A stretch of DNA of 64,000 bases, from NCBI GenBank assembly GCA_030583725.1, contig CP129472.1:142958-206957 (forward strand), in the 5' to 3' direction. A program made the translations under genes and the position numbers. The DNA is from a bacterium. GTDB taxonomy: Bacteria; Patescibacteriota; Microgenomatia; UBA8517. The notes below the pieces were generated by a model. It saw only the letters and a list, made by a program, of their open reading frames with translations, searched no databases and was not told the DNA's origin. Numbering within the stretch: position 1 is the stretch's first letter; every line of letters starts with the position of its first letter. Shown piece after piece: positions 1,117-50,141 of the stretch.

Positions 1117-1229
1117 TATTTAATGAATTGTTTTAAGATATTTTTTAAATAATCTATTTCATAATCGTCACTTCTAAAAACGGTTCTAGGTGTTTTTGTT
1201 AAGCCACCCATAAGGTGTATAATTAAATT

Positions 1230-1895: not shown

Positions 1896-1908
1896 TATAC
1901 TACTTAAT

Positions 1909-2820
1909 ATGCTTCTAGATAAAGTTGATGTTACATTTAAGGCTGGAGATGGTGGTAATGGTCGTGTATCTTTTAAAAAGATTGGCCGTGGTCCTGATGG
2001 TGGTAATGGTGGTCGTGGTGGAGACTTGTATGTTCAAGGTTCTTCAGATTTAACACTGCTAAACCAATTTAGCCAAAAAGACTTCTTCTCAGCAAATGAT
2101 GGAATTCTTGGTGGGAACAATATTAAAAGTGGCGGAAAAGGAAATGACTTAGTTCTTACCTTACCCATTGGGACATCACTAGTAAACAGGGATACAAACA
2201 AAGTTGTTTTAGAAATTAAGGACTCTACTCAAAAAATAAAACTACTAAATGGAGGTGATGGTGGAAAGGGGAATTGGGAATTTAGAAGCTCCAGAAACAC
2301 TACCCCCTTGAAAGCACAAAAGGGTTTTAAAGGCGAAATACTAAATCTAACATTAGACCTTAAATTAATTGCCAATTTTGGATTGATTGGACTACCCAAT
2401 TCTGGTAAAAGTAGTCTCTTAAATGAACTAACAAATTCAAATGCAAAGGTTGGGAATTATGCATTTACCACTCTTTCACCAAATTTAGGTGTAGTTAATG
2501 GAAAAGTAATTGCTGATATTCCTGGACTTATTGAAGGTGCCTCTGATGGTAAAGGACTTGGTATTAAATTCTTAAAACATATTGAAAAAGTAGATGTCTT
2601 GATCCACTGCATAGACTCAACGTCTGACGACTATAAAAAAGATTATGAGATTGTACGTAATGAATTATCTAAATTTAATGAAGAAATGCTTAAAAAGAAA
2701 GAAATCATTCTATTAACAAAGTCTGATTTAGTAGACGAAAAGAAAAAGTTCAAAAAAGGTATATCTATGTCTGTCTATGATATCGAGAGTCTCAATAAAC
2801 TAAAAAAACTATTAAACTAG
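1909..2820 (+). CDS. obg: GTPase Obg (no C-terminal OCT/TGS domain)
   Basis: Gly-rich Obg fold (FKAGDGGNGRVSFKK...GGNGGRGGDLYVQG) then G-domain with G1 'GLIGLPNSGKSSLL'; start moved from track 1849 to ATG 1909 (MLLDKVDV) to clear the upstream gene. Confidence 0.85.
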   Translation: MLLDKVDVTFKAGDGGNGRVSFKKIGRGPDGGNGGRGGDLYVQGSSDLTLLNQFSQKDFFSANDGILGGNNIKSGGKGNDLVLTLPIGTSLVNRDTNKVVLEIKDSTQKIKLLNGGDGGKGNWEFRSSRNTTPLKAQKGFKGEILNLTLDLKLIANFGLIGLPNSGKSSLLNELTNSNAKVGNYAFTTLSPNLGVVNGKVIADIPGLIEGASDGKGLGIKFLKHIEKVDVLIHCIDSTSDDYKKDYEIVRNELSKFNEEMLKKKEIILLTKSDLVDEKKKFKKGISMSVYDIESLNKLKKLLN

Positions 2821-4107
2821 TTACTTTCTTGTTACTTTGTAGTATTCTGGATAGTAAAGAAAAATTGCAGGCACTTCTTCAACCAAAAATCTCTGGAAAT
2901 CAAGATATAGTTTTTTTCTTGTTTCTTGGTCTAGTTCGGTTCTACCGTCTTCCAATAGTTTGTCAACTCTTACATTCTTAAACTTTGAGATGTTGGTTTC
3001 TGACTGTGTTGAGTGCCAAAGGCTATATTGATCAGGATCTTTGGGTATATCAACAGTTGCAAGAAAAACTTCATAATTTTCAGGTATAGTTGTGACTATC
3101 TCAACTTCAGTGTTTGCCCCATGGTCTTGCCATTCTTTGGATATACTTTCAGCAATTCTATAAAGATTTGGTAGAACTGAAATTTTCAAATTTATTCCTT
3201 TAATTTCTTCAACCTTGGTTGCGTCTTTTATATAGGGTTTGACCTGTGGATTATAACCCCAAGAAAAGGGTGATATGGGCCCCAATGCACGATTTTCATA
3301 CTGGTCTTTATCTATGGCATAATTTAGAGCCTGTCTAACAGCTTTCTCTGCTAACTTTTCGTTATCTGTATTTAAAAATATTCCCACAAAGTTGTCAAAG
3401 CTTGTATTTTTGTCTATTTCTATTGTTTTCCAGCCCTCAAAACTTGAAACGTCGTTGATTCTTTCAATTATGTCTATTTCTCCCAACTTAAAACCTAAAA
3501 TCAATCTCTCTTCAGAGGGGAAAAACTTGTAAACAAGTCTGTCTTTCTCCTTGTTTTGCAAAGTAATATTTTGTACATAGCCACCAGCTAAAGATACGTC
3601 TTTAACCTCCCATTCCCCTGTACCCAACAAGCCCTTTTTAAAGACTGGTTTACTTACGATAACAGGAAAGGCAGTAAACTGGCTATCAAGGCTAAACACT
3701 ATAGTTTGTTCATCAACAACACTAACTTGGGCGTCATTAAATTCATATTTAATTTCAGAGGCTAATACTTTCTTCTCATCTTGCCAGGTGACATTTTCAT
3801 CAAGTGTAAATATCCATGTTTTTCCACCATCTGTTGTTTGCCATGATTTGGCAATTGATGGAATTACATTACCATTCTCATCAGTTTTTGTTAAACCGTC
3901 AGAAATTTTAGTTGCAATAACTGGGGGCAGGTTATCTACGGTGTAGCGTCCAGCAATACCTATTTTCTGCTTCTCGGATATCATACTAGGTAGTAGGAAT
4001 GATAGAAAAAGAAAAACAATAATTCCAAAGACAAAGCCTAAAAAAATTATTGCCTTAAACCTTTTAAAAAAGGCTTGAATTAACCTGAAAATATATCGAG
4101 GTGACAT
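2821..4107 (-). CDS. ABC-transporter substrate-binding protein, family 5 (peptide/nickel-type), orphan (no permease/ATPase nearby)
   Basis: N-terminal TM/signal anchor; 'GLTKTDENGNVIPSIAKSWQTTDGGKTWIFTLDENVTWQDEKK' matches the SBP_bac_5 N-terminal signature. Confidence 0.5.
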   Translation of the reverse strand: MSPRYIFRLIQAFFKRFKAIIFLGFVFGIIVFLFLSFLLPSMISEKQKIGIAGRYTVDNLPPVIATKISDGLTKTDENGNVIPSIAKSWQTTDGGKTWIFTLDENVTWQDEKKVLASEIKYEFNDAQVSVVDEQTIVFSLDSQFTAFPVIVSKPVFKKGLLGTGEWEVKDVSLAGGYVQNITLQNKEKDRLVYKFFPSEERLILGFKLGEIDIIERINDVSSFEGWKTIEIDKNTSFDNFVGIFLNTDNEKLAEKAVRQALNYAIDKDQYENRALGPISPFSWGYNPQVKPYIKDATKVEEIKGINLKISVLPNLYRIAESISKEWQDHGANTEVEIVTTIPENYEVFLATVDIPKDPDQYSLWHSTQSETNISKFKNVRVDKLLEDGRTELDQETRKKLYLDFQRFLVEEVPAIFLYYPEYYKVTRK

Positions 4108-4821: not shown

Positions 4822-6102
4822 CTAATTAAAACTATCTGTCAAGAGTTTATGATGCAACCTTCTGGCAAAACGATGGGCCTCATCCCTAACTCTGGCTGTT
4901 ATGTTTAAGTTCAGGCCTTTAAGTCTAACTTTAACTCCATTTACAAATACCAATCTATCGGGGTTTTTAGCAATACCGACTACAGGTATGCCAAGTATTT
5001 TACATGCCTCATGGAAAACTTTTACTTGACCCAATCCCCCATCAACAATTATCAAGTCAGGCTTATCCCATTTATCAAGGTTTTTAATTCTTCTTTTTGC
5101 AATTTCTCTCATAGAATCATAGTCACTTTGCCCTTTAGGCTGTCTAACTTTAAAATGCCTGTATTCAGAGTTATGATTCTCACCTTCTGTTAGTACAACC
5201 ATAGACGCAGTAGTAAAGACACCTTGCAAGTGAGAGATGTCATAGCACTCAATTCTTTTTAACTTGGTTATTCTTATTCCATTTGAATTTAGAAGTTCTT
5301 TTAAGCTGTTGATTTCCATTAATCTTATGTCTTCAACTAGGTTTGGATTTTCAATAAATTTCTCAGTCTTGATTCGTTCCTGAGTAATATAATCTAGGAT
5401 CTTGATCTTATCGCGAAGAGTCATTGCTTTTTCAAAGTCCATATCTCGAGAATATTTTTTCATTTCTTTTTCGAGCGAGTTTCTAACAATATTAAATTTT
5501 CTACCTAAAATTAGTTTTATGTTTTTAATGTTTTGCCTATACTTTTTGGTCAGTTCTTTTCTATCTACTTCTGCCTCAGTACTAACTATCTCGTTTGGAC
5601 AAGGGCTACACAAACCCAAATGTGAGTAAAGACAAGGCTTTTTACCTATCTTGTGGTCCGAAAATGGAAATATTTTTCTTACCACCCTCAATATATATTT
5701 TACATTGTAAGAACTTGGAAACGGGCCATAGTCACCAGATTTTCTTGATGTTAGTATTCTTGGAAATTCTTCTTTTGTAATTAGAATATAAAGTGGGTGC
5801 TTATCATCCTTTAGGACAATATTATATTTTGGCTTATGTTTTTTAATTAATGATGACTCTAATAACAATGATTCAAAATCTGAAGTTACTTTAATGTAGG
5901 TTACCTTAGTAGCTTCTTGTACCATTAATTTAGTCTTAACCCCCAAAGTAATATTTAGATAACTGTTAAGGCGTGACTTTAGGTTTGAAGACTTACCAAT
6001 ATAAATAGGAGCATCTCCACTAGATGTGGTGCTTTTTTTCCAAAAAATATATACCCCTGGTGTTTGGGGAAGTTTTAAGAATTCTTTTTTGGAAATTTCC
6101 AT
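4822..6102 (-). CDS. uvrC: excinuclease ABC subunit C (UvrC), short form without the C-terminal (HhH)2 domain
   Basis: N-terminal GIY-YIG (GVYIFW...IYIGKSSNLKSRLNSY); RNase-H-like endonuclease domain with ECYDISH, IVDGGLGQ and C-terminal RDEAHRFA; protein ends 15 aa after DEAHRFA. Confidence 0.88.
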   Translation of the reverse strand: MEISKKEFLKLPQTPGVYIFWKKSTTSSGDAPIYIGKSSNLKSRLNSYLNITLGVKTKLMVQEATKVTYIKVTSDFESLLLESSLIKKHKPKYNIVLKDDKHPLYILITKEEFPRILTSRKSGDYGPFPSSYNVKYILRVVRKIFPFSDHKIGKKPCLYSHLGLCSPCPNEIVSTEAEVDRKELTKKYRQNIKNIKLILGRKFNIVRNSLEKEMKKYSRDMDFEKAMTLRDKIKILDYITQERIKTEKFIENPNLVEDIRLMEINSLKELLNSNGIRITKLKRIECYDISHLQGVFTTASMVVLTEGENHNSEYRHFKVRQPKGQSDYDSMREIAKRRIKNLDKWDKPDLIIVDGGLGQVKVFHEACKILGIPVVGIAKNPDRLVFVNGVKVRLKGLNLNITARVRDEAHRFARRLHHKLLTDSFN

Positions 6103-7913
6103 TTTTTAAATCTGAATAATATTGTTACAAGTATTAAAATAATTATGAAAAATACAAACAACAGATTATATATTACAACCTGTTTTTTATTTGTGGCAAC
6201 CGTAACACTTTCTCCGTCAACTAAAACTTTAACAATTTCAGGAGTCTTAGCTCCTAAAAATGAAAACGGGATTGTGATATGTGTATTATATACTTGAAAT
6301 GGAAGTAAAACATTAAGGGTTGAATTTTCTGGTCTTTCATAATTATCAAAATAGACCTTGGGATTAATGTTATAAATTGCAGTAGGTCCAGGGTTTTCAA
6401 TATTTAAATTTAAACTGTTTGCAACTAATGGTATCCAACGGTCAAGGTTTGCAGTGACATTGACAACAGAGTTTCTTTCCTGTGGTAGTGTGCCAAATGA
6501 TACAAAAACATCTTTCTGTGGATTTGCTCCAAGTTTATATGATCCTGCTGGATATGGTTTAATAGAACTTTTTCCGTGTATTACAAAAGTAAAGTGTCTT
6601 AAATCAAGCTTATTAAAGTAATCAACACCACCTGTAGTTGACCCCCATGTTGGATCAACAGGTATCCATGATTTTTTTTCATAATCGTAATATTCAGGCC
6701 AAGCATGCAAGACATCATTAACAAGTGAAAGAGGTTGGATTTCTGGGTTTTCAGTGTATGCAAAGCCATTAATCTCTCTTGCAGGTATTCCAGCGGCTCT
6801 TGAAATTGCAACAAAAAGGTCTGTAAATTCCATACAAATTGCTTGTGTGGGGTTCTGTAATGCAGAAACAGCCCCTAGTCTTTCTACATTTGGTCTAACT
6901 CTGGCATAATCATATTTAAGATGATTAGTTACATAGTCATATATTTGTTTTGGTGTTTTTAAGGTACTGGCAAGTTTAACTATTTCAGGATTTGAGGTTT
7001 CCCAGTATGTTTGTTCAGTCAGGTTTTCTTCTAATGACAATTGTGTTGGCCTGGGATATGGTCTTTGGGTTGCAAATATTTGTACATAACCCACGGCATT
7101 TACATCAATTCTCTCACGTGCCTTTAGCGTATATTTTGCAATCCAGTTGCCATCACTATCTACATACATACTAACTGGTCTTGGAGTTATGTTTGTATAG
7201 TATATTTTTTGAAATGCTGTGTCCGGAGGGAGTGTAATTTCAGTTTGTGACTCACGAGCCAATGGATTCTCCAAGTGGTAGTTTAAATTAAAACTAAATA
7301 CTTGGAACTGTCCAAAACCTGCAGTAATACCAGATCTTGAGACATCATCTTTATTAAATCTATATTTAAGTAGTTCTCCTTCTTTAACTGAACTTCTTGG
7401 TTTTGGAGAAATGTATGCTTCTTGACCTAAACTTTCAGGAATTTCTAAGTTTATAAAATAACTTGAAAAATCAGCATTTTCAGCAAGTCTAGGAATTGAT
7501 ATTTCCCAAACTTCTCCTGTTCTTATGGCAAATGAGCTTTCATCAAAGGCTACCCAAAAAGTTCTTGATTTATCCTTTCCAACAACTGAATCACTAAAAA
7601 CAACTTCAATTGATGTTGTATTGGCGTTTTGAGTTTTATTAACTGTTAGTGGGCCATTTACATCATAGGCCCTAATGTTTTGTGGAGTTATGCTGTCTAA
7701 TACTATGGAATATGAAGTAGCATATAAATTACTAAAAACATTAGTTAAAGTTACTTTATTTACAACTTCAGTAACTCCACTATTTTTAACTTTATAAGTA
7801 ACATCAAAATCAGTTACAAATTCACCAGCAGCCTTAACAGGGCGAGAAAATAGGAAGGTGTGAACAGCAAATAGAAAAAGCAAAAAAATAATAAATGTAG
7901 ATACCCTTTTCAT
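6075..7913 (-). CDS. secreted/membrane-anchored transglutaminase-like (Cys-His-Asp) domain protein
   Basis: Signal peptide, C-terminal TM anchor; 'QAICMEFTDLFVAISRAAGIPAREINGFAY' is the transglutaminase-core Cys motif. Confidence 0.65.
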   Translation of the reverse strand: MKRVSTFIIFLLFLFAVHTFLFSRPVKAAGEFVTDFDVTYKVKNSGVTEVVNKVTLTNVFSNLYATSYSIVLDSITPQNIRAYDVNGPLTVNKTQNANTTSIEVVFSDSVVGKDKSRTFWVAFDESSFAIRTGEVWEISIPRLAENADFSSYFINLEIPESLGQEAYISPKPRSSVKEGELLKYRFNKDDVSRSGITAGFGQFQVFSFNLNYHLENPLARESQTEITLPPDTAFQKIYYTNITPRPVSMYVDSDGNWIAKYTLKARERIDVNAVGYVQIFATQRPYPRPTQLSLEENLTEQTYWETSNPEIVKLASTLKTPKQIYDYVTNHLKYDYARVRPNVERLGAVSALQNPTQAICMEFTDLFVAISRAAGIPAREINGFAYTENPEIQPLSLVNDVLHAWPEYYDYEKKSWIPVDPTWGSTTGGVDYFNKLDLRHFTFVIHGKSSIKPYPAGSYKLGANPQKDVFVSFGTLPQERNSVVNVTANLDRWIPLVANSLNLNIENPGPTAIYNINPKVYFDNYERPENSTLNVLLPFQVYNTHITIPFSFLGAKTPEIVKVLVDGESVTVATNKKQVVIYNLLFVFFIIILILVTILFRFKKWKFPKKNS

Positions 7914-8500
7914 AATTTAATAGCTTGAAGTATGGTTTCATCTGAAATTAAAATGTTTGTATCAGTAGTATAGATTAATCCTTTATTTGGCTCGCTTTGA
8001 AACCCAATGTAAACGGTTTTCACCTTAAGTTTCTTGAGTTCATATACTGCAGGTTGTAAATCTGAATCAGAGCTACAAAGAATAGCAGTTTTTACCTTTT
8101 TGTTATATGCGTACGAAACTAAATCAACAGCAATTTTAACGTCAACACCTTTTTCTTTAAAAATGATTTTTCCATTAACATCTTGCCCCCTTACATTACC
8201 AAAAATAACTACATCATAATTTTCCTTTTTAAGATTATTAAACAATGATCTTTGAATATTAATTAACTTCTGTGATTTCTCCTTAGTTTTTGGATGTATA
8301 TGTAGCTTTGCAACATAATACTTTTTGGAATCGACATTATATTTGTCTAATACTTCTTTTAAAATCGAGTCTATACTTATTTTAGAAATGTCTTTTTTGT
8401 GTTTAATTTTTGAAGATTCTACTATTTTTTTTATTTTATAAAAAAAATTCTCTCCATCAATAAAAATAACTGTTCTATTCATAAACTTATTATGTCTCAA
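7910..8500 (-). CDS. NYN-domain (LabA/YacP-like) protein
   Basis: 'VIFIDGENFFYKIKK' N-terminus and 'AILCSSDSDLQPAV' acidic motif of NYN/LabA nucleases; overlaps upstream gene by 4 nt. Confidence 0.6.
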   Translation of the reverse strand: MRHNKFMNRTVIFIDGENFFYKIKKIVESSKIKHKKDISKISIDSILKEVLDKYNVDSKKYYVAKLHIHPKTKEKSQKLINIQRSLFNNLKKENYDVVIFGNVRGQDVNGKIIFKEKGVDVKIAVDLVSYAYNKKVKTAILCSSDSDLQPAVYELKKLKVKTVYIGFQSEPNKGLIYTTDTNILISDETILQAIKL

Positions 8501-39918: not shown

Positions 39919-40179
39919 TGGCGGGATCGACGAGACTCGAACTCGCAACCTCTTCCGTGCAATAAATCCTAAAGTTTCCTTTAAGCTTGGACTATCTCAT
40001 CAACCTCGTGGGTTGCCAGGTATATAGTCTCTACACATTTACGACGCATTTGCGACGATTTAGCTCGGGATTACCATTTTAAAGGTTTCCCCGAATTAGC
40101 CTGATGTTCATCTTTATATTGCTAAAAAGAGCTGCCACTTTCGACAGGGAAGCACTCTAACCAATTGAGCTACGACCCC
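39919..40179 (-). tRNA. tRNA-Asp (anticodon GUC) interrupted by a group I intron; CCA encoded
   Basis: 5' exon GGGGTCGTAGCTCAATTGGTTAGAGTGCTTCCCTGT plus 3' exon CACGGAAGAGGTTGCGAGTTCGAGTCTCGTCGATCCCGCCA assemble into a canonical cloverleaf (7-bp acceptor with one G-U, D GCTC/GAGT, anticodon CTTCC/GGAAG loop CUGUCAC, T GCGAG-TTCGAGT-CTCGT). Confidence 0.8.
39960..40143 (-). ncRNA. group I self-splicing intron (184 nt) between anticodon positions U35 and C36
   Basis: Follows exonic U, ends in G; P1-like hairpin with U-G at splice site; P/Q/R/S-like core elements AAUUCGGGGAAACC, AAUCCCGAGC, GUGUAGAGACUAUA, GAGAUAGUCCAAG (P7 GACUA/UAGUC). Confidence 0.75.
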
Positions 40180-41261: not shown

Positions 41262-41390
41262 CGCTAAACAGCGGGGTATGAAATTATGTTTCATACCTAA
41301 AGTCTCTGCGGGATTAGTTAAACAGTCTAACACCTCCTTCCCAAGGAGGAGAAACGAGTGCGACCCTCGTATCCCGCTCAAAATTAAATT
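41262..41390. ncRNA. GC-rich structured RNA candidate in a convergent intergenic gap
   Basis: 11-bp long-range helix AGCGGGGUAUG(41269-79)/CGUAUCCCGCU(41377-87) with two G-U pairs, competing 10-bp local hairpin GGUAUGAAAU/GUUUCAUACC, 7-bp CCUCCUU/AAGGAGG hairpin; strand unresolved. Confidence 0.3.
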
Positions 41391-42430
41391 TAGTCCGTAT
41401 CTTCGGACAATTCTAGTGATTTGATATCAGGCAGTGCCCTTCCTGTTACCCCTTGAAGATCTCCATACATCCCATGAGTATGGTCAATTACTTTTCTAAT
41501 TTCTTTTTCTTGCCTTGCCCATTTGCTACTAAACCACCTTTTTTCTTTTTCTATATCTTCTTGCATGGTTCCAAAGGCTTCTACGATTCCTTCTACTCTA
41601 TGTTTAAATTCATTTCCAGTCAAATACTCATACAACACCTTCATTTTTTCATCTACGTTGGTGGCGTTTTGTTTTTCATGATAGATATTCACAAGATTGA
41701 ATCGTAGAGACATGGCAAGAAGTGTAAAATTACTAATATTACAAACCCAAACCCCATCTTTAAAACCAACACCTTTATCTTTTAAGTCTTCTGGCAAATT
41801 AATTGAGACTAGGACTGCAAGGTCAGCCTTGGCCTGTCTTTGATCTTCTTTAAGTTTGGTAATCCAAGTATCACTCCATTTTGCATTTTTACTTTCCCAG
41901 ATTATGTTTCCGCAATTTCTGCCTAATTTATCAACTACGGTCTGGATTACATCAGCACCCCTAACACCTTTTTTAACTTCATTAATTTCATCATTAGGAA
42001 ATTCCTGTTTTAATTTAGTCTCAATTGTAAGTTCAAGTGTTTCTCCTTGTGTTTGTTGTGATCCTTGATTAGCTTTCTTTTGTGCTTCTTCAAGTGATTT
42101 TTTAAGGTCATTAATTAATTTTTCTTTTTCTACATCTTTTAACTGATGTTCTTCTGCAGCTTTTTTCCTAGCTTCACTTCTGATTGTGTCTTCACTCTCC
42201 ATTAGTTTCTTTTTCATCTCTACTTCTCTCATTTCATCTTTTTCACGCAGGGTTTTTATTTCATCAAGAAGTTTGCCCATATCTGACGTGAATTTTCTTC
42301 TAACTTCATCAACCTCATTTTGGGCTTTTTTACGTTCTTCTAAAATTATGGAGTCTTTAATATCATGGGCTAGTTGCTCAGCAACATCAATTATATTCCC
42401 ACATTTATTACATTTAACAGTATTTGCCAT
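41390..42430 (-). CDS. zinc-ribbon/coiled-coil protein with C-terminal PD-(D/E)xK-like nuclease motif (DUF2130-like), MGE-associated
   Basis: N-terminal 'CNKCGN', long Lys/Glu coiled coil, C-terminal 'GADVIQTV...GNIIWESKNAKW' (D...E-x-K). Confidence 0.5.
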   Translation of the reverse strand: MANTVKCNKCGNIIDVAEQLAHDIKDSIILEERKKAQNEVDEVRRKFTSDMGKLLDEIKTLREKDEMREVEMKKKLMESEDTIRSEARKKAAEEHQLKDVEKEKLINDLKKSLEEAQKKANQGSQQTQGETLELTIETKLKQEFPNDEINEVKKGVRGADVIQTVVDKLGRNCGNIIWESKNAKWSDTWITKLKEDQRQAKADLAVLVSINLPEDLKDKGVGFKDGVWVCNISNFTLLAMSLRFNLVNIYHEKQNATNVDEKMKVLYEYLTGNEFKHRVEGIVEAFGTMQEDIEKEKRWFSSKWARQEKEIRKVIDHTHGMYGDLQGVTGRALPDIKSLELSEDTD

Positions 42431-42433
42431 AGT

Positions 42434-43252
42434 TTATTTTTTGTTTTTCAATTTTAAATAATTTCTGCCAGTTACCACTTTTTGGTTTGTTTTTGATTCT
42501 AAGTCAAGCCTTGCTCGTTTCGCTATTCTACCACCTTTAACAGCAGGAATTTTATTCTCTTTAAAGCCAACTGCATTTTCTGCTTCTGAAATTTGCCTTG
42601 TTGAAAGTTCAGCTAAAGCAGTAAATATCAATTCAGCATCAGACATGTGATCTCTTAAATTTTGATTAGCCAGACCTTTTAGGTTTTTGTGCTCCCTAAC
42701 TGTCAAATCGCTCCACTCTTGATGGATGATGTTTGTTAATATTGCATATTCATTTTCCTTTTTAACCTTGTGATCCTTCCAGTAATCTGTCAACTTGTTT
42801 CGTATTTCCTGACCCATCATTCTCTGCTGTATCCATTTTTGGCTCCTACCCATTCTTTGCCAGTAGTCCCGAGCCCGGTTTAAAGACCTTTCAGGATCTG
42901 ACATATCTTGAATTCTTTGATGGCCTACTTTTGCCAGCCAAAGTTTAATCGGCTCGGCTTTTGGAGATGTAACAGACTGGATTAAACGAAACAAAGTTTC
43001 AACGTCAGCAGCATCAGTCAAGTATTTCTTGCCATCAGTTGAGATCATTTTCAGTTGTACGATTTTTTCGTACACCTTACTATTTTCCAACTTTAACTTA
43101 CGTTTTAGATCAGATAGATATCGTTTTGGAATACTGCTTTCAGTGAGCAAGCCAATTATATCCACTACAGAAAAAAACCATTTTTCTTGTTTTTCATCCC
43201 AATGCCTGCGAATATTTTTTCCTTTAAATATTACTAAATCCTTGGAGGTCAT
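42434..43252 (-). CDS. Bro-N domain protein (phage antirepressor/DinD-like)
   Basis: 'DLVIFKGKNIRRHWDEKQEKWFFSVVDIIGLLTES' Bro-N signature; start at MTSKDL. Confidence 0.55.
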   Translation of the reverse strand: MTSKDLVIFKGKNIRRHWDEKQEKWFFSVVDIIGLLTESSIPKRYLSDLKRKLKLENSKVYEKIVQLKMISTDGKKYLTDAADVETLFRLIQSVTSPKAEPIKLWLAKVGHQRIQDMSDPERSLNRARDYWQRMGRSQKWIQQRMMGQEIRNKLTDYWKDHKVKKENEYAILTNIIHQEWSDLTVREHKNLKGLANQNLRDHMSDAELIFTALAELSTRQISEAENAVGFKENKIPAVKGGRIAKRARLDLESKTNQKVVTGRNYLKLKNKK

Positions 43253-43325
43253 AATTAACAATAACCCCAAGATAATACGAAGTCAATATACATAATCTGT
43301 CAAAAACTATATAATTCCTATGTAC

Positions 43326-43398
43326 GCCGGGGTAACTCAGCTGGTAGAGTAGCTGTATCGTAAACAGCAAGTCGTGAGTTCGAATCTCACCCTCGGCT
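43326..43398 (+). tRNA. tRNA-Thr (anticodon CGU)
   Basis: GCCGGGG-TA-ACTC-AGCTGGTA-GAGT-A-GCTGT-ATCGTAA-ACAGC-AAGTC-GTGAG-TTCGAAT-CTCAC-CCTCGGC-T; all stems pair (one G-U in acceptor); CCA not encoded. Confidence 0.85.
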
Positions 43399-43402
43399 CA
43401 AA

Positions 43403-44762
43403 ATGCTTACAAAATCAGACTTTTTATTATTTTTAAAAGCTCCACTACATCTCTGGGCCAAGAAACACAAAAAATTAGACAAAAAGACCCCCTCTGCATA
43501 TGAACAACATTTAATGAAGCAAGGATATGATGTTGAAAAACTTGCAAGAAAACTATTACCTCACGCAGTTTGGCAAAAACCATATATTACTGATGAACTA
43601 GAAATCAGGCAGGATGCATTAATCAAGTTTGATGATGGTAGCGCTAATTTATATGAAGTTAAAAGCTCAACAGAAGTGAAAAAGGAACATTTGTTTGATT
43701 TAGCCTTTCAAGCAATTGCCACAGAAGAAAAGGTAAAACTTAAAAAAGTTTTCACGGTTACTATAAATAAGGATTATGTCAAAAAAGGTGAAATTGATGT
43801 TAACGCATTTTTTGTAATTACAGACTTAACAAAGCAAATTAGGGAATTAAAACCAGTAGTGCAAGAAAAGATTCTAGACGCCATAAATGTAGCAAATAAA
43901 GAAAGTAAAGACTATATAGAAAACTGCCTAAACCCCAAAACCTGCCCCTGTATTAATCTCTGCTATCCAAATCTACCGGAGAAATCAATTTTTAATATAC
44001 CCTACTTAAATTACAAAAAGAAAAGAGAGTTAGTAGATATGAAAATACTAGACATTACAAAAATTCCAGAGAGTATTGAGTTAAACGAAAAACAAAAAAG
44101 AGTAGTCACAGTAATTTCAAACAACAAGCCATACTTAAACAGTCAAAGATTAAAAGAGTTTTTAGATTCTTTTACATATCCAATTTACTTTTTAGACTAT
44201 GAAACATATTCACTAGCAATACCAATTTATAATAACTACAAGCCATATCAACACATGGTTTTTCAGTATTCACTGCACATAGTAAATAATGATGGAACAG
44301 TAACACATAAAGAGTATTTAGAAACTGAAACAGGAGACCCATCAAAAAATTTAATTAAAAAGTTAAAAAAAGACATAGGCCCAGTTGGCTCAGTCGTTTC
44401 ATGGAATAAACAGTTTGAATGTAGCAGAAATAACGATATGGCACTTCTCTACCCTGAATATAAAGAATTTTTAGAAGGTATTAATAATAGAATGATTGAC
44501 CTTGCTGATTTCATAAACAAAGAAATATATATTCACCCAGACTTTTTTAGGTAGCTGGTCTATCAAAAATGTTTTACCTGTCATGGTTCCTGAGCTTTCC
44601 TACAAAAAATTAAAAGTAAACAAAGGAGACCAAGCAATGTTAACTTGGTGGGAGATGGTAAATAGTAAAACGAAAAGTGAAGCAAAAGATCTCTTGGAAT
44701 ACTGTGCTCTCGATACCCTCGCCATGGTTAAAATTTGGGAAAAGCTAAAAACAATCTTATAA
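43403..44762 (+). pseudogene. Cas4/RecB-like PD-(D/E)xK nuclease fused to DEDDy-type 3'-5' exonuclease (DUF83-DUF2779 architecture), interrupted by a frameshift in a T6 run
   Basis: N-terminal 'DALIKFDD...LYEVKSS' + 'QAIA' + Cys cluster 'CLNPKTCPCINLC'; exo motifs 'FLDYETYS', 'SWNKQFE'; track ORF stops at TAG 44552 right after TTTTTT (44543-48); frame 0 continues '...MLTWWEMVNS...LLEYCALDTLAM' (Y-x3-D) to 44762. Confidence 0.5.
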
Positions 44763-44797
44763 ATATTTATCTATACATCGTGTGCTCAATAAAAGAA

Positions 44798-45589
44798 TTA
44801 TGCATTTGCTACAGTTTGAGAAGCTCTGTGCTCTTTCTTGTGCACTCGTTTGATTTGATCTGTTAGTTTGACCAACTTTTCTCTAATATCCTTCAATTCT
44901 TTTAACCTTTTCTGTATATCTGCATTGCCAATGAGTGCAGCGTGCAATCCCGTAACCCTCTGGTTTGGTGCAGACCATCCGATGTATTTGCATATTTGCT
45001 GGTCAGTCATGTTAGAAAATAATCTTCCTCTAAGATACTGAATTACCGATCTATCATTTGCAGCATCCACATTGTGCTGATGGTGATTTGCTCTGACATT
45101 TTGGTAAAGAATACCTTCCATTTTCTCTCCTAATACGTAGGCTTTTCGAGTAAGCTGATAAAAATCGTTATATTTGTTTATAAGATCGTTGTCTGGGTAA
45201 TATGCATCGTGGTTGTTTATCTGGTCAAAGTTTGCTTGATATACATCAAACAATGGATTGATGTGTGACCCATCAAAATAGAATTTATTGAGGCCGCTCA
45301 AGTTCCAAACACTTGGACCTCTATCATAAGCTTCTTGGATATCGACCAATAGCCTACGTTCATAAAATGACTTTGCCCGAGACTTGCTTGCTTGATACTC
45401 ATTTGATTCCTGAAGATAGTAAAAGATTGCAGCAATAACACCCCCGACAATTCCACCTCCGACAATTTCAGATGTTAGGTTGTCTTTCAATGATTGACCC
45501 AAAGAAGAACATAAATTGATTGCAACTATAGCCAATATGCACAAAAGCGATATTGCCGCAATAAATTTCAATAATCTTTTTTGATCCAT
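44798..45589 (-). CDS. hypothetical membrane protein (two N-terminal TM helices, Gly-zipper 'GGGIVGGVIAAIF')
   Basis: 263 aa; co-directional with and immediately downstream of the R-M cassette. Confidence 0.4.
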   Translation of the reverse strand: MDQKRLLKFIAAISLLCILAIVAINLCSSLGQSLKDNLTSEIVGGGIVGGVIAAIFYYLQESNEYQASKSRAKSFYERRLLVDIQEAYDRGPSVWNLSGLNKFYFDGSHINPLFDVYQANFDQINNHDAYYPDNDLINKYNDFYQLTRKAYVLGEKMEGILYQNVRANHHQHNVDAANDRSVIQYLRGRLFSNMTDQQICKYIGWSAPNQRVTGLHAALIGNADIQKRLKELKDIREKLVKLTDQIKRVHKKEHRASQTVANA

Positions 45590-45600
45590 AGGTTACATTA

Positions 45601-46101
45601 TTATTTGTTATATAAAATATTTGAATTATTACAAACTAACTTTGTTATACTTATATTCCATGCTCGCATTGTTTTATGCCAATGTCTGAATTTTAGAAAT
45701 TGGTCCCATGTTAATTCAAGAATCAATTTTGGCATATAATTTTTGTCGATTTGAACAAGAATTAGATATTCGAATTTCTTTTCCGGAATTTCTACATCTC
45801 CAGGATTTCCCATGCCGTGAAATACACCTGTAGTTTTGTTCGGTTCAGACATCGTTTTTATACTATATCTGTCCCCATTATTACTAGTAGCGTCAATATT
45901 TTTTGTGCCCTTTTGAACTAGTTGTAATTTAGAATAATTTGGCTTTGAGTTGCAAATTGAAACAACCAAAAACTCACCTCTGTCACCTATTATATTATTA
46001 GTTCTAACTAAACCTCTTTTTCTTAATTCAGATACTGAATTTGCATATAACAACCAAAGTTCATCATTTGATACTGAATCTAGATCATCCATCTTTATCA
46101 A
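45601..46101 (-). CDS. small nuclease-fold-like hypothetical protein
   Basis: 166 aa; 'IGDRGEFLVVSI...LQLVQKGTKNIDA...RYSIKTM' loosely fits a PD-(D/E)xK/Hjc-Mrr-like core; 17-nt overlap with upstream gene. Confidence 0.3.
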   Translation of the reverse strand: MIKMDDLDSVSNDELWLLYANSVSELRKRGLVRTNNIIGDRGEFLVVSICNSKPNYSKLQLVQKGTKNIDATSNNGDRYSIKTMSEPNKTTGVFHGMGNPGDVEIPEKKFEYLILVQIDKNYMPKLILELTWDQFLKFRHWHKTMRAWNISITKLVCNNSNILYNK

Positions 46102-47125
46102 TTACAAGCAATGTAGATAATAAATTTTCTAGCCTTATGAAAAAGGTGTAAGGTGCAAGCAATGTATCCTCACCACCTCCACCACCACGGCTATTCGACC
46201 AGCTAACCCCAGTCAAAAAGTCACTCAGCAGGATTGAATCCCATTGCACAAATAATCTATCTTCGCGATTGTTAACTTGTCTTACATTATAAATTATAGG
46301 TATATTAATTTTATTTAGTAAATATAAATACCAAAGTATTCTTCTAGAATCCCAACCATATTGCCAACTTTGTAAATTAGTAGTGCCGTTTGATATCGGA
46401 GTTTTTTCTTTAATTTCTACAAGAAAAAGATTACTGTTTATAAAAACAAAACCGTCTAAATCTATTATTTGCCTGCCTTGTGCCTTTCGCATTACGACAT
46501 CTAAAAAATATCTCGTGGCATATATCTTTTGTAATATTTTAATATCATAGTTATTGAAATAATCAAATTGTTCTCTTTTTCTTAATGGGAATTTACGTAC
46601 TTTTTGTGTAGAAATAGAAAAACTGTTTAGGATAAAGTCAAAATTACCATTTTGGATAACATTGAATTTCCCACTCACCGCATTAAATAAATAAAAAGTA
46701 AATTTAGGCTTCAGTATATGATCTTGCGATCTTTCGGGTCGCTTACTTTTTTTTGTTTCAAATTGTTCAGTTTCCCAATCGTTTAAATTAATTTTTATAT
46801 ATAATAACTGTTTAATTTCCTCCCATGTAGACATTTTTTTATAAATATTGACGTAGTCAATTTCGTTGTCACTAGAGATTGTTGTGTAAATAAATGAGTT
46901 TTTGTCACGACTGTCACCCGATAACTTTTTTGATATAAGTTGTCCTCCTTCGAGAAACTTTGTATCAGATCTTGATTGCATAAGATTCTCAAATTCTACT
47001 TCAGCTTTAAAACCTAATACTCTTCGCTTAAAATAATCGTTGTTTGTAACCCTACTATCACTAACAGAGCTTGTCGATGAACACATTACTTTATACAAAC
47101 TTTCTATTATTTGGTTTTTAGTCAT
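46085..47125 (-). CDS. candidate type II restriction endonuclease (PD-(D/E)xK) of the M-C-R cassette
   Basis: 346 aa; 'IIDLDGFVFINSNLFLVEIKEK' = D-x(n)-E-x-K in correct spacing; sits 6 nt after the C-protein gene. Confidence 0.45.
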   Translation of the reverse strand: MTKNQIIESLYKVMCSSTSSVSDSRVTNNDYFKRRVLGFKAEVEFENLMQSRSDTKFLEGGQLISKKLSGDSRDKNSFIYTTISSDNEIDYVNIYKKMSTWEEIKQLLYIKINLNDWETEQFETKKSKRPERSQDHILKPKFTFYLFNAVSGKFNVIQNGNFDFILNSFSISTQKVRKFPLRKREQFDYFNNYDIKILQKIYATRYFLDVVMRKAQGRQIIDLDGFVFINSNLFLVEIKEKTPISNGTTNLQSWQYGWDSRRILWYLYLLNKINIPIIYNVRQVNNREDRLFVQWDSILLSDFLTGVSWSNSRGGGGGEDTLLAPYTFFIRLENLLSTLLVIDKDG

Positions 47126-47131
47126 ACAATT

Positions 47132-47356
47132 TTATAAAAAATGAGTAACCTTTGTTTTATATATTTTAGAGATTTGTTCAAGTTCAGTAATATCCAACCT
47201 ACGTTCACCTAATTCTATCTTGGAGATATAAGATTGAGGTTTACCTAATTTACTGGCAACATGTAATTGTGTCAAACCCAAACTAATTCTTAATTTTTTG
47301 AGTTTTTGTATAACCAACTTATATTTTTTTGTGTATATTAGATTAGACATGAACAA
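47132..47356 (-). CDS. HTH XRE-family controller (C) protein of restriction-modification system
   Basis: 74 aa; 'LRISLGLTQLHVASKLGKPQSYISKIELGERR' HTH_3; position between M and R genes. Confidence 0.7.
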   Translation of the reverse strand: MFMSNLIYTKKYKLVIQKLKKLRISLGLTQLHVASKLGKPQSYISKIELGERRLDITELEQISKIYKTKVTHFL

Positions 47357-47362
47357 ATAATA

Positions 47363-47394
47363 TATCCTTAATTAGGATAACCCAAAATAGGATA
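47363..47394 (-). promoter_or_regulatory. candidate C-box-like operator upstream of the C gene
   Basis: Near-palindrome TATCCTTAATTAGGATA (47363-79) plus a second direct TAGGATA half-site 15 bp away (47388-94), in the 38-bp gap between the MTase stop and C start. Confidence 0.25.
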
Positions 47395-48378
47395 TTATTT
47401 ATTGAAGAATTTTATGATATTTTTAGCAAGCGCTTTAATTACAGGTACTGCAACGCTATTGCCAAACTGTTTGTAAGCCTGCATGTCACTTACAGGGATA
47501 ATATAACTTTCTGGATAGCCTTGCAAGCGTGCGGCTTCTCTCGGTGTTATTTTCCTTGGATTTTTTCCTTTTTGTTCAATCAATATTTCTGAACCGTCCT
47601 TGTAATACCTTGCTGAAATTGTGCTTGTGTATTCAGATTCCTCATTAAACAATGAATATCCAAAACCATTTCCTTTTTCTCTGTGTTCTTTCTTTCTTCT
47701 TTGGTGACCAGCCCATAATTTATCGGAAATAGTATGTTTTGGATCAATTTCCTTATCTAAGATATTACCAAGTCTTGTTTTAGTTTTGGGCTCAATAGGA
47801 AATTTAAAATCTACATCCTCTTTAAATCCGATTATGTAGATTCTTGCTCTATTTTGAGGCAAACCAAAATCTTTTGCATTTAACACCTGATGAAAAACTT
47901 TATACCCCAGTTTTTCAAGGGTCCCTACAATAACTTTCAAAGTATTACCTTTGTCGTGCGTTCCCAAATTTCTTACGTTCTCAAGAAAAACAACCTTTGG
48001 TTTGTGATGTTCCACAATTCTAGCAATATCAAAAAAGAGTGTTCCTCTGATGTCTCCAAACCCTTTCTTTAAACCTGCCTGAGAAAATGGCTGGCAAGGA
48101 AAACCTGCGAGCAAAACATCAAACGGTGGTATTTCTTCTGCTTTAATTTTGGTTATATCACCATATGGGACTTCCCCAAAATTAGCACTATAAGTTTTTT
48201 GTGCATGACTATCCCATTCAGAGGAAAAAACACATTCACCATCAACACTTTCAAATCCTAATCTAATTCCACCAATACCTGCAAATAAGTCTATAAATTT
48301 AAATTTTCCTTTTTTCTCTTTTTTAGATGGATTACTAAACAAATCAGTTAAAATTATTGGTTGCTTAACGTTAGCCAT
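47395..48378 (-). CDS. DNA (cytosine-5)-methyltransferase
   Basis: 327 aa; motif I 'FIDLFAGIGGIRLGF', motif IV 'GFPCQPFSQAG', motif VI 'ENVRNL', C-terminal motif X. Confidence 0.9.
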   Translation of the reverse strand: MANVKQPIILTDLFSNPSKKEKKGKFKFIDLFAGIGGIRLGFESVDGECVFSSEWDSHAQKTYSANFGEVPYGDITKIKAEEIPPFDVLLAGFPCQPFSQAGLKKGFGDIRGTLFFDIARIVEHHKPKVVFLENVRNLGTHDKGNTLKVIVGTLEKLGYKVFHQVLNAKDFGLPQNRARIYIIGFKEDVDFKFPIEPKTKTRLGNILDKEIDPKHTISDKLWAGHQRRKKEHREKGNGFGYSLFNEESEYTSTISARYYKDGSEILIEQKGKNPRKITPREAARLQGYPESYIIPVSDMQAYKQFGNSVAVPVIKALAKNIIKFFNK

Positions 48379-48483
48379 TCACTAATTCTAGCATTTTTGA
48401 CGTCAAAATAGTTAGGAATTACTACGGTTTTTATTCACTCCCCTACTCTTGCGAAATGTTTTTTTAAGGTATATAGTTATTAT

Positions 48484-49404
48484 ATGGATGATTTGCTGGA
48501 AGATGCAGTAAATGTTTGTATTCAATATGACAGAGCTTCTGCTTCACTTCTGCAAAGAAGATTATCAATAGGTTACGCCAGAGCTGCTAGAATTATTGAC
48601 CAACTAGAGTCTGCTGGTGTACTTGGTATGTCTGATGGTAGCAGTAAACCTCGGGAAGTTTTAATTAAATCATATAAAGAATTTAAAACAAAAGATGATC
48701 ATGGGTTAGTTGCTGAAAAGAAAGATGAGTTTAAAGAAACTTCTAAGGAGTATACTCCAATTGTTGCAGATTTTTTAACTGATGATATTAAAAAATTATT
48801 AAAACCTACTGACTTACCATATATAAAAAATGACCTTACCCGAATTGGTAATTTAATTGTCACAGGGAACGTGATTAGTAAAAAGTATGAATATATAAAA
48901 ACTTATTTACTGTTTTTACTTTCAAAGTTTAATTTGTCTGATGTTAGAGTAATAATTGATGACGGGACTGGAAAACTTAAAAAGTTTGGCAGTATCCCAC
49001 ACCTTTTAACTTCCATTATTGATAAATCTGAAGAATCTCTTTCATCACTTCGCTGGCTAAGTCGAGAAATGGATAGAAGAATTGAAATAATTAATAAAGA
49101 TGATAAAACCACTTTTCCTGAGATTATTTACATAGGAAATATATTCAGTTTCTATAACAGTGATATTGAATATGCAATCAAAAGAATTTCTTCAATGGGT
49201 GCATATGCAAAAATTCATTTAATTTTGCTTGGTGATAGACTTGGTGACTTTCCAAAACAAATCAAAGACAATATCCCCGCAAGACTTGAGTTTAGTAAAT
49301 TTGGAGAAGCTGAAGCAGTATTTAGTTTTAAGGAAAAAATAAAAATTAGAATAACTGAATTAGACAAAGTGAAAGTTATAGATTATTTAGCAAATCTTAG
49401 CTAA
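48484..49404 (+). CDS. FtsK/SpoIIIE-family protein with N-terminal gamma (wHTH) domain and degenerate beta (RecA-like) domain - predicted pseudo-ATPase
   Basis: aa 1-60 match FtsK-gamma (DDLLEDAVNVCIQYDRASASLLQRRLSIGYARAARIIDQLESAGV...PREVL); downstream region aligns to FtsK beta (SDVRVIIDD...IPHLLTSII...LRWLSREMDRRIEII; KIHLILLGDRLGDFPKQIKDNIPARLEF) but Walker A is GNVISKKY and Walker B is IGNIF. Confidence 0.6.
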   Translation: MDDLLEDAVNVCIQYDRASASLLQRRLSIGYARAARIIDQLESAGVLGMSDGSSKPREVLIKSYKEFKTKDDHGLVAEKKDEFKETSKEYTPIVADFLTDDIKKLLKPTDLPYIKNDLTRIGNLIVTGNVISKKYEYIKTYLLFLLSKFNLSDVRVIIDDGTGKLKKFGSIPHLLTSIIDKSEESLSSLRWLSREMDRRIEIINKDDKTTFPEIIYIGNIFSFYNSDIEYAIKRISSMGAYAKIHLILLGDRLGDFPKQIKDNIPARLEFSKFGEAEAVFSFKEKIKIRITELDKVKVIDYLANLS

Positions 49405-49420
49405 TTTAGCCTCAAAACTA

Positions 49421-49449
49421 TTGACAAGCGCTTGCTATGGTGGTAATAT
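49421..49449 (+). promoter_or_regulatory. consensus sigma70-type promoter TTGACA-N17-TAATAT
   Basis: -35 TTGACA 49421-26, 17-nt spacer, -10 TAATAT 49444-49; predicted TSS ~49456. Confidence 0.5.
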
Positions 49450-49455
49450 TCTATT

Positions 49456-49586
49456 GAAGCGTACACTAATAACTTAAGTAGTGCCTTAATGTTCCCTCGG
49501 AATATCCGGGACGTTAAAGTTAAGGGTAAACATTATTTAAGACGTCGCTTCACCAATTTACTCAATCTTCGGATTGAGTTTTTTGA
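49456..49586 (+). ncRNA. candidate ~130-nt small RNA (unknown family)
   Basis: Bounded by the promoter above and the terminator below; 5' GAAGCG (49456-61) pairs with CGCUUC (49546-51) as closing helix; internal CCUUAA/UUAAGG and CUCGG/CCGGG hairpins. Confidence 0.4.
49560..49585 (+). terminator. rho-independent terminator
   Basis: CUCAAUC-UUCG-GAUUGAG followed by UUUUUU. Confidence 0.55.
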
Positions 49587-49647
49587 TTTTCAGAACTGTA
49601 ATTTTTATTTAAAAGATTAAATAGTGTATAATTATTTTTAAAGTATT

Positions 49648-49964: not shown

Positions 49965-50141
49965 TTAATTTTTCTCTAATTGTTTTTTAAGAAGTTTGTA
50001 TACGTTTTTCTTTGTTTCTTCAACTGTCATACCCCACTCTCTGGCCATTTCTTCAAAAGAAGCATCAGTTAAAGATGCACCTTTTACATCGGGCTTACCC
50101 ATATTGTCATCTGGAATATCGCATCCGCAATTGAAACACAT
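49965..50141 (-). CDS. 58-aa Cys-rich small protein (below the ORF-track size cutoff)
   Basis: Hand translation: MCFNCGCDIPDDNMGKPDVKGASLTDASFEEMAREWGMTVEETKKNVYKLLKKQLEKN; fills the 195-nt gap between two annotated genes. Confidence 0.3.
   Translation of the reverse strand: MCFNCGCDIPDDNMGKPDVKGASLTDASFEEMAREWGMTVEETKKNVYKLLKKQLEKN

Follow-up and report, generated by a model that had tools for sequence, protein, structure and literature searches.

A DUF3800-V RNA without its DUF3800 gene in a Patescibacteria genome, and the putative two-part cassette to which its relatives belong

Eleven unrelated RNA motifs have been described beside genes for DUF3800-domain proteins, among them DUF3800-V (Weinberg et al., 2017; PMC5737381). 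These conserved structured RNAs, tied to an RNase H-like protein, are a standing puzzle: no specific functional hypothesis was obvious to their discoverers (PMC5737381), and no function has been proposed for them in the literature since 2017. The DUF3800 domain is predicted to adopt an RNase H/RNase H2-like fold and serves as effector in type VII retrons (Mestre et al., 2020; PMC7736814). It also accompanies some Cas12a2 loci (Altae-Tran et al., 2023; PMC10910872). Here, we describe a copy of the DUF3800-V RNA that lies, from promoter to terminator, at positions 49421-49585 of a 64-kb stretch of a Patescibacteria contig (CP129472.1, 841,695 nt). This stretch is called the window below, and all coordinates given without a locus name refer to it. 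More than 110 homologues of the RNA, mostly from Patescibacteria (candidate phyla radiation, CPR), were gathered for comparison; where single loci have to be told apart, they carry numbers preceded by L.

The whole window was scanned with cmscan against Rfam 15 at gathering thresholds. Positions 49455-49552 of the forward strand match RF02964, the DUF3800-V RNA, over the full model (positions 1-96 of 96), with 63.5 bits for a gathering threshold of 37.4 (E 7.3e-12). An earlier interpretation of this DNA, made from the letters alone (the sequence-only reading), had been unable to match the element to a known RNA; the scan supplies the missing name. The same interpretation had counted a match to a housekeeping RNA as telling against a dedicated small RNA, and on this point it is left standing, RF02964 not being a housekeeping family. 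The window RNA has all the unpaired nucleotides conserved in the family, namely UAAUA in the 5' loop, GUUCC in the internal loop and AGAC in the 3' loop, and a Rho-independent terminator stands directly 3' of the motif, as in RF02964. A DUF3800 (PF12686) gene does not adjoin the RNA in the window; this adjacency gave the family its name and lies outside the Rfam membership rule. By homology, the window copy is a member of this already known family, and it is filed as an orphan copy.

The minimum free energy (MFE) fold of the window RNA equals the family consensus, with 32 of the 33 consensus pairs formed. It has the shape of one long irregular hairpin, to which a separate terminator hairpin is added, and its energy is far below that of shuffled sequences (-40.4 versus -23.9 ± 3.8 kcal/mol; z = -4.3). 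The closing helix GAAGCG/CGCUUC and the inner helices CCUUAA/UUAAGG and CUCGG/CCGGG, which the sequence-only reading had picked out, are all present in this fold and amount essentially to the family consensus. The asymmetric loop of the core holds the conserved ACUAAUAA, and the conserved unpaired segments are AAUAAUA, GUUCC (internal loop) and AGAC. Helices and signals are listed in Table 1.

The sigma-70-type promoter upstream of the core had been called perfect. Its TTGACA-N17-TAATAT layout is indeed found at 49421-49449, but a consensus scan matches only 10 of the 12 positions, with 4 of 6 in the -10 box. The same scan finds an extended -10 element, the spacer ending in TGG (TG at 49441-49442), and transcription is predicted to start at about 49455-49456. 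On the downstream side, the terminator proposed earlier is present exactly where it had been placed and recurs in the complete homologues; it is nearly identical to those of L020 and L005. Taken alone, the promoter and terminator signals of the window are not above chance: in the surrounding 9-kb region, 39 promoter-like sites are observed for 39.0 expected from shuffles, and terminator-like sites are only in slight excess (6 observed for 4.1 expected). The two signals rise above chance because the same layout is conserved in about 40 homologous loci. From its sequence, the element is read as an independently transcribed gene for a structured small RNA, with a predicted transcript of about 130 nt.

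Homologues were collected in two ways. For the RNA-anchored set, a 30-nt degenerate pattern based on two copies of the RNA, that of the window and one from a viral contig, was searched in a collection with one genome per species. It yielded 45 matching stretches, about 43 of which are true copies; two matches in Bacteroidota look like chance. Nearly all true copies come from Patescibacteria/CPR (Woesebacteria, Saccharibacteria, Paceibacterota, Magasanikbacteria and others). A housekeeping role was considered and rejected: with about 43 pattern matches in 185,579 species-representative genomes and unrelated flanks, the RNA is accessory. In viral contigs, a strict DNA pattern (TAATANCTTANNNNNTGCCTNNNTGTTCCC) has no match, and a looser one gave one true match and three chance matches. 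The protein-anchored set consists of 80 metagenome loci chosen by their DUF3800 protein, which had to be intact, and searched with a covariance model built from the RNA alignment. It avoids the bias of the DNA pattern used for the RNA-anchored set. In most homologous loci, TTGAC(A/T) is followed by a spacer of 16-18 nt and by a -10 box that ends 5-7 nt before P1, the closing helix. After the motif of about 96 nt come a short linker and an intrinsic terminator, the latter in all complete loci.

The conservation of the structure with covariation in related genomes, on which the sequence-only reading had made its proposal depend, is borne out in both sets. In the RNA-anchored alignment (42 sequences), 96.0% of the cells are paired over 33 pairs, as compared with 41-45% when the partners are slid by 1-3 columns; two-sided changes are seen in 20 of these 33 pairs, and the observed values were not attained in any of 500 shuffles. 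In the protein-anchored alignment (66 distinct sequences), 94.7% of the cells are paired, 27 of the 33 pairs are compensatory, and the covariation score is 0.52 versus about 0.1 in slid controls. The unpaired A11, A14-A17, GUUCCC and AGA are at least 97% conserved in these 66 distinct protein-anchored RNAs. Variation is limited to the covarying helices and to an optional inserted hairpin. Such an insertion, of 9-19 nt and hairpin-like, is seen in L016, L017, L021 and L030 in the 3' internal loop between P4 and P3 (alignment A1, columns 60-78), and it is probably shared by L063, L064, L099 and L128, whose matches span 107-115 nt. It forms an optional expansion segment absent from the Rfam consensus. 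The alignments also suggest refinements of the RF02964 consensus itself: P1 would gain a seventh pair and P2 four base pairs (CUUA/UAAG), an extension in which pair 22-110 covaries. The outermost P4 pair is usually not formed, and the alignments argue against it.

Clustering of the open reading frames (ORFs) of the RNA-anchored loci reveals a single conserved neighbor, a protein of about 220 aa encoded convergently in 34 loci, the 3' end of its gene lying 7-68 nt from the RNA. The other flanking genes are unrelated from locus to locus. The conserved neighbor is a DUF3800 protein (PF12686; Pfam, E 1e-11 to 1e-17) and matches the PADLOC candidate defense model PDC-M04A. Starting from the protein, 77 of the 80 loci carry the RNA, always convergent, just past the gene end and with 70-105 bits. 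As for the remaining loci, the RNA is cut by the contig end in L052, and two contigs end 0-3 nt after the gene. The RNA is found in 78 of the 78 protein-anchored loci with informative downstream sequence, and no protein-only locus was seen among them. The 3'-end-to-3'-end arrangement is common to all 112 linked loci (34 RNA-anchored and 78 protein-anchored). As judged from gene arrangement, the RNA and the DUF3800 gene form a compact, horizontally mobile two-part cassette, mainly of Patescibacteria. In L109, a second RNA copy, truncated at its 5' end (P3 onward) and followed by a terminator, is located at 5531-5617 on the reverse strand, 2.3 kb away from a complete module. Its near identity to the L045 RNA points to recombination between cassettes.

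The two halves of the cassette also seem to share their transcription end. Between the DUF3800 stop codon and P1 there are 4-52 nt (median 16), and in 45 of 67 distinct loci the codon falls within the transcribed tail of the RNA; in the other 22, the coding sequence (CDS) and the transcript do not overlap. The 9-nt linker of the 67 loci has a mean A fraction of 0.63, so that the opposite strand reads as a U-tract. Because of this A-rich linker and of the stop codon inside the RNA tail, the hairpin probably terminates both the RNA and the DUF3800 mRNA in partner-linked loci, acting as a bidirectional terminator. Unlike in partner-linked relatives, the 9-nt linker of the window (CCAATTTAC) is not A-rich.

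The predicted structure of the partner points to an enzyme. An AlphaFold2 model built with 45 homologues has a pLDDT of 89 and a pTM of 0.87, and its best Foldseek matches in the PDB are archaeal RNase HII structures (3p83, 1i39, 1uax and 1eke; E 1e-5, probability 1.0, TM 0.5-0.6). This RNase HII-like fold agrees with the descriptions of DUF3800 in type VII retrons and Cas12a2 loci (PMC7736814; PMC10910872). The invariant residues are D6, E7, D78, D131, Q175 and D178. The model fits an active metal-dependent nuclease.

At the RNA promoter of some loci, a perfect DnaA-box 9-mer (TGTGGATAA / TTATCCACA) is found, either upstream of the -35 box or in the spacer and in either orientation. The 100-nt stretch before the RNA contains it in 17 of the 45 RNA-anchored loci (the window being counted in this set) and in 16 of 68 distinct protein-anchored loci. 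Examples are L007, L010, L029, L032, L035, L037 and L040, as well as L043, L065, L074, L085, L104 and L123. In 294 kb of sequence, 16 of the 23 occurrences fall inside these 100-nt promoter stretches, an enrichment of about 100-fold. This suggests that DnaA, or another factor with the same site, may control RNA expression in a subset of loci. The 9-mer is not present in the 100 nt upstream of the window RNA.

In the window, only a trace of the partner gene is left. Among the 59 candidate ORFs of the window that reach 90 aa, none has a PF12686 match in Pfam, and a clade-specific DUF3800 hidden Markov model (HMM), applied unfiltered to the six-frame translation of the window, finds nothing (best E 0.39). 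Homology detected by blastn to L020, L005 and L030 spans about 49405 to 49594-49607; it starts at about 49405-49407 for L020 and L030, and it ends at 49594 for L020 and at 49607 for L005. The end in L020 corresponds to the last 33 nt of its DUF3800 gene. The homologous span covers the promoter, the RNA, the terminator and only the last 11-16 or so DUF3800 codons. In tblastn, residues 212-227 of the L020 protein show 69% identity over 16 aa at 49565-49612 (E 0.11, weak alone). None of the 120 best DUF3800 clusters is on a contig as long as the source contig, and a cognate DUF3800 gene elsewhere on this contig is unlikely.

Two further candidates for a divergent or broken partner were rejected. 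A 58-aa ORF at 49965-50141 on the reverse strand gives 27% identity over 67 aa in tblastn (E 0.5), is not colinear with the remnant and is blank with the HMM. The three Pfam-less ORFs at 44798-47125 give no Pfam or clade-HMM signal, and one of them is a methyl-directed type II restriction enzyme.

Orphans of this kind recur. The gene is missing or degraded in 7 of about 41 RNA-anchored loci: the RNA stands alone in the window and in L012, L028, L031 and L039, and gene fragments only are left in L044 and L016. The window copy, with 63.5 bits, lies among the same-clade partner-linked copies (61-68 bits), and the other orphans score 71-81 bits. The window copy has kept its promoter, each of its 32 real base pairs and its terminator intact. 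In three orphan loci, the convergent slot is occupied by another gene, a NYN gene in L012 (4743-5363) and L039 (3170-3715) and a DUF2779 gene in L028 (1855-2775). The window also has a DUF2779 gene (43403-44554) and a NYN gene (7910-8500), and NYN or DUF2779 homologues are found near the complete modules of L055, L070, L073, L085, L095 and L116. This recurrence may reflect an exchange of nuclease partners, or it may be a coincidence. In L012 and L039, the NYN gene is preceded by a second mini unit of transcription, located downstream of the RNA at about 60-190 nt and about 70-165 nt, respectively. It consists of TTGACA-17-TATAGT or TAATAT, a short hairpin and a terminator, and it is preceded by GTGGATAAC in L012. 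These mini units may be further small RNA genes.

Table 1. Coordinates of the DUF3800-V RNA, its signals and its neighbors in the window.
Feature	Position	Strand	Remarks
Sigma-70-type promoter	49421-49449	+	-35 TTGACA 49421-49426, 17-nt spacer, -10 TAATAT 49444-49449
DUF3800-V RNA core (RF02964)	49455-49552	+	Rfam match, MFE fold, covariation; about 98 nt
P1 helix	49455-49461 (UGAAGCG) / 49546-49552 (CGCUUCA)	+	closing helix
P1a helix	49463-49464 / 49544-49545	+	
P2 helix, including 4-bp extension	49473-49483 / 49531-49541	+	
P3 helix	49484-49490 (CCUUAAU) / 49519-49525 (GUUAAGG)	+	
P4 helix	49496-49500 (CUCGG) / 49506-49510 (CCGGG)	+	AAUAU cap
Linker between P1 and terminator	49553-49559	+	CCAAUUU
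Intrinsic terminator	49560-49585	+	ACUCAAUC-UUCG-GAUUGAGU then UUUUUU; stem 49560-49579, T-run 49580-49585
Putative DUF3800 3' remnant	49565-49612	-	last 11-16 or so codons, overlaps terminator; tblastn and blastn
DUF5671 membrane-protein gene	49648	+	same strand, ATG 62 nt downstream of RNA terminator
Short FtsK-like gene	48484-49404	+	306 aa, immediately upstream of RNA; conserved chromosomal anchor
Window slot	41390-49404		C5 methylase, helix-turn-helix (HTH) protein, methyl-directed restriction enzyme, two unknown ORFs, DUF2779, Bro-N/PDC-S13

The genomic neighborhood gives this orphan a context. The sequence-only reading had placed the element at the edge of a defense island, and the annotation of the slot agrees with this view: the genes include a type II C5 methyltransferase, an HTH protein, a methyl-directed restriction enzyme (PADLOC mREase_II, E 2e-49) and a Bro-N/PDC-S13 protein (PADLOC, E 2e-115). 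The FtsK-like protein encoded next to the RNA begins with its gamma (KOPS-binding) domain (residues 2-61), followed by a partial FtsK/SpoIIIE ATPase region. This gamma-first order is unusual, and conserved homologues with 65-73% identity are encoded on many Patescibacteria contigs. In six relatives with this level of identity, genes for PDDEXK_1, Big_6 and Wzy_C are shared further downstream of the anchor, and the slot that precedes the anchor holds a different restriction-modification (R-M) or defense cassette in each. The contents of the slot in these relatives (L131-L136) include GmrSD with an EcoRI-type methylase, DpnI with an N6/N4 methylase, Mrr with a methylase, a D12 methylase with DUF6996/6997, and a LexA-C5 methylase fusion with DUF2779. 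Judging from this turnover, the slot upstream of the FtsK-like gene is a hypervariable defense hotspot in this Patescibacteria lineage. Neither the RNA (unfiltered cmsearch, top score 15 bits) nor a DUF3800 gene occurs in any of the six syntenic relatives. The complete RNA-DUF3800 module adjoins the FtsK-like anchor in three other relatives (L030, L056 and L064). The DUF3800-V cassette is, on this comparative evidence, one interchangeable occupant of the hotspot.

Two possible vehicles of the cassette were considered and rejected. An integrated element bounded by tRNA-derived att repeats was looked for around the islet, and no convincing direct repeats were found. A phage-borne module is also poorly compatible with the data, since only 1 of 2.9 million viral contigs carries the module, which is not typically viral. 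In this contig (L003, from IMG/VR; region 1060-3574), the module stands beside an integrase, a rolling-circle replication initiator and a Zot-like ATPase, and its RNA region is identical to that of L033; the region resembles an inovirus-like element integrated into a CPR genome. Elsewhere in the window, a group I intron (RF00028, 82.3 bits) is located at 39968-40159 on the reverse strand, a stretch in which ARAGORN finds no tRNA gene and the gene map shows no ORF of at least 90 aa.

The above analysis establishes family membership, structure, strict RNA-protein linkage, the predicted partner fold and the loss of the partner gene in the window. The reading that we favor as a whole, with a probability of about 0.6, is that the window harbors a genuine DUF3800-V RNA, one half of a cassette with an RNase HII-like nuclease, the partner being lost here. 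The RNA would then be the bound partner of the DUF3800 nuclease in a mobile cassette of the defense or addiction type. That the RNA acts by being bound to the nuclease is quite probable. Because its loops are invariant and its stems covary freely, it would be recognized by a protein; since it has no variable unpaired segment, it is not expected to be a programmable guide. Within the complex, the RNA may hold the nuclease inactive, like an antitoxin or a guard, on the model of type III toxin-antitoxin systems and of retrons that have DUF3800 among their effectors. This neutralizing role, proposed by analogy, is put forward tentatively, at somewhat less than even odds; an activating or scaffolding role is less likely and may be called rather improbable. 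A toxin-antitoxin pair can safely lose its toxin gene but not its antitoxin. The neutralizing role is favored because RNA-only loci occur while protein-only loci are not seen, an asymmetry to be expected of such a pair, because the RNA has a strong promoter, and because DUF3800, as the effector of type VII retrons, is accompanied there by a dedicated nucleic acid.

It should, however, be noted that several points weigh against this reading. The asymmetry between RNA-only and protein-only loci (7 of about 41 versus 0 of 78) is weakly diagnostic, because the protein gene is an about five-fold larger mutational target and because the protein-anchored set required an intact protein; the count of 0 in 78 is not far from the expectation under neutral loss. 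A single-copy convergent RNA with an RNase H-like partner fits no established toxin-antitoxin type. Self-cleavage, which was looked for by the discoverers of the DUF3800 RNAs, was not found (PMC5737381), and the literature on PF12686, PDC-M04, DUF3800-I and skipping-rope yields no functional study, only the 2017 paper and structural remarks. The window RNA is intact; a recent deletion of its partner would look alike, however. Finally, a DUF3800 gene may be present on another contig or belong to a more distant clade.

What, then, is the orphan of the window? The nuclease gene may have been deleted in the window lineage, or the cassette may have arrived already truncated, its arrival appearing lineage-specific. 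We give even odds to the view that the window copy is a stranded remnant which can still be transcribed. We prefer it to a maintained orphan because the six syntenic relatives lack the RNA, with no sign of long-term retention. The alternative is that the orphan RNA is functional and kept, either to neutralize the DUF3800 proteins of incoming elements, a form of immunity or anti-addiction, or to serve a nuclease encoded elsewhere. The intact promoter, fold and terminator speak for it, as does a score inside the same-clade partner-linked range. It is also in line with the recurrence of orphans (five without the gene and two with fragments) that score no worse than partner-linked RNAs, and with the presence of a NYN gene in two orphan convergent slots and of a nuclease-like DUF2779 gene in one, both genes also being present in the window. 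On the other side, most orphan RNAs are nearly identical to partner-linked copies, which suggests recent loss; the recurrence of NYN and DUF2779 may be no more than background, and the lack of the 120 best DUF3800 clusters on contigs as long as the source contig does not favor a nuclease encoded elsewhere on it. All in all, the maintained orphan appears doubtful as compared with the stranded remnant.

Other explanations concern the function of the RNA itself. The convergent orientation, seen without exception in both sets (RNA-anchored, 34 of 34; protein-anchored, 78 of 78), the presence of the stop codon inside the RNA transcript in 45 of 67 loci and the A-rich linker acting as a bidirectional terminator would suit an RNA that is mainly a cis-antisense regulator of the DUF3800 mRNA, through interference or pairing of the 3' ends. 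The overlap is, however, confined to the terminator and linker, in the 3' tail, and it is lacking in 22 of 67 loci; in the window, where the partner is gone, it has no counterpart. A body of about 96 nt with 33 covarying pairs and invariant loops would be superfluous for antisense action, and other DUF3800 RNA motifs vary both in orientation and in the side of the gene on which they lie (PMC5737381); this explanation is improbable. The sequence-only reading had also proposed a riboswitch-like leader for the membrane-protein gene at 49648. This DUF5671 gene is on the same strand, with its ATG 62 nt away and a terminator in between, and the leader would act as an attenuator. What follows the RNA in the homologous loci, more than 110 in number, is DUF3800 on the opposite strand and not DUF5671; the block comprising DUF5671, the 58-aa ORF and an oxidoreductase exists without the RNA in L133, and neither the MFE nor the centroid structure shows an apparent alternative fold for anti-termination, so that such a leader is very improbable. 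As for a small protein, a frame of 43 codons does exist from the ATG at 49489, and the sequence-only reading had already regarded it as devoid of a ribosome-binding site and the RNA as stand-alone and non-coding. The comparison agrees with this opinion. The frame is not conserved, measuring 3 to 54 codons in homologues or staying open over the 200 nt examined; its start, ATG in some copies and GTG in others, is part of a covarying base pair, and one-nt indels occur inside the frame. Substitutions follow base-pair covariation instead of a codon-like pattern, and a protein product can practically be dismissed. A free-standing trans-acting small RNA is conceivable, but nothing supports it. The remaining proposal of the sequence-only reading, an RNA antitoxin or regulator of the adjacent R-M genes, is right in spirit, but the conserved partner is the DUF3800 nuclease, which is absent here.

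If the RNA is indeed the restraining half of a cassette, a wider picture can be drawn, which we hold to be unlikely in its full form. The cassettes would constitute a new RNA-protein type of toxin-antitoxin or abortive-infection system, widespread in Patescibacteria, with orphan RNAs persisting as immunity to incoming cassettes. In such a system, the structured RNA, made from a strong promoter, would restrain an RNase H-type effector until infection or replication stress occurs; the promoter is flanked by a DnaA box in about a quarter of the loci. The window copy itself is of modest interest and leaves the DUF3800 puzzle unsolved because its protein is lost. For motif V, the puzzle is nevertheless sharpened by the convergence, the shared terminator, the 78/78 linkage, the R-M slot, the RNase HII-like fold of the partner with its intact acidic residues and the DnaA-box enrichment. 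Motif V thereby becomes a directly testable two-component hypothesis, in a bacterial group whose accessory and defense biology is poorly known.

As compared with RF02964 as described, the window copy agrees in its helices, unpaired nucleotides and terminator and differs by having no DUF3800 gene within 64 kb. The other DUF3800 motifs (I to XI), drum and skipping-rope are likewise structured RNAs beside DUF3800-type genes, several of them with 3' terminators and with a recurrent UAA (PMC5737381); they share no common structure with motif V, which is strictly convergent. Guide RNAs of the crRNA or omega-RNA type have a variable unpaired guide, whereas the unpaired segments of motif V are its most conserved parts (at least 97%). 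The TPR-DUF3800 proteins associated with Cas12a2 resemble the partner by a DUF3800 domain with a rearranged RNase H active site and by a context of nucleic-acid-targeting defense (Altae-Tran et al., 2023; PMC10910872). Motif V differs in that there is no CRISPR array, Cas gene or TPR domain, the protein of about 220 aa standing alone. Type VII retrons likewise bring together, in a defense-type cassette, a DUF3800 protein resembling RNase H2 and a structured non-coding RNA dedicated to it (Mestre et al., 2020; PMC7736814). No reverse transcriptase is a conserved neighbor in the RNA-anchored loci, and no such domain is found among the window ORFs; there would therefore be no msDNA, and the RNA itself would take its part. 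The logic proposed here is closest in kind to that of the type III toxin-antitoxin systems (ToxIN, CptIN and TenpIN), in which a structured RNA neutralizes an adjacent nuclease, on mobile DNA and with a role in defense or addiction. In these systems, the RNA is made of tandem repeats and lies upstream in the same operon, whereas that of motif V is a single unit of about 96 nt in convergent orientation; the toxin is an endoribonuclease of the ToxN/AbiQ type, whereas the partner of motif V has an RNase HII-like fold and matches only PF12686 in Pfam. The cassette is not a type III toxin-antitoxin system but, by analogy, it may work like one.

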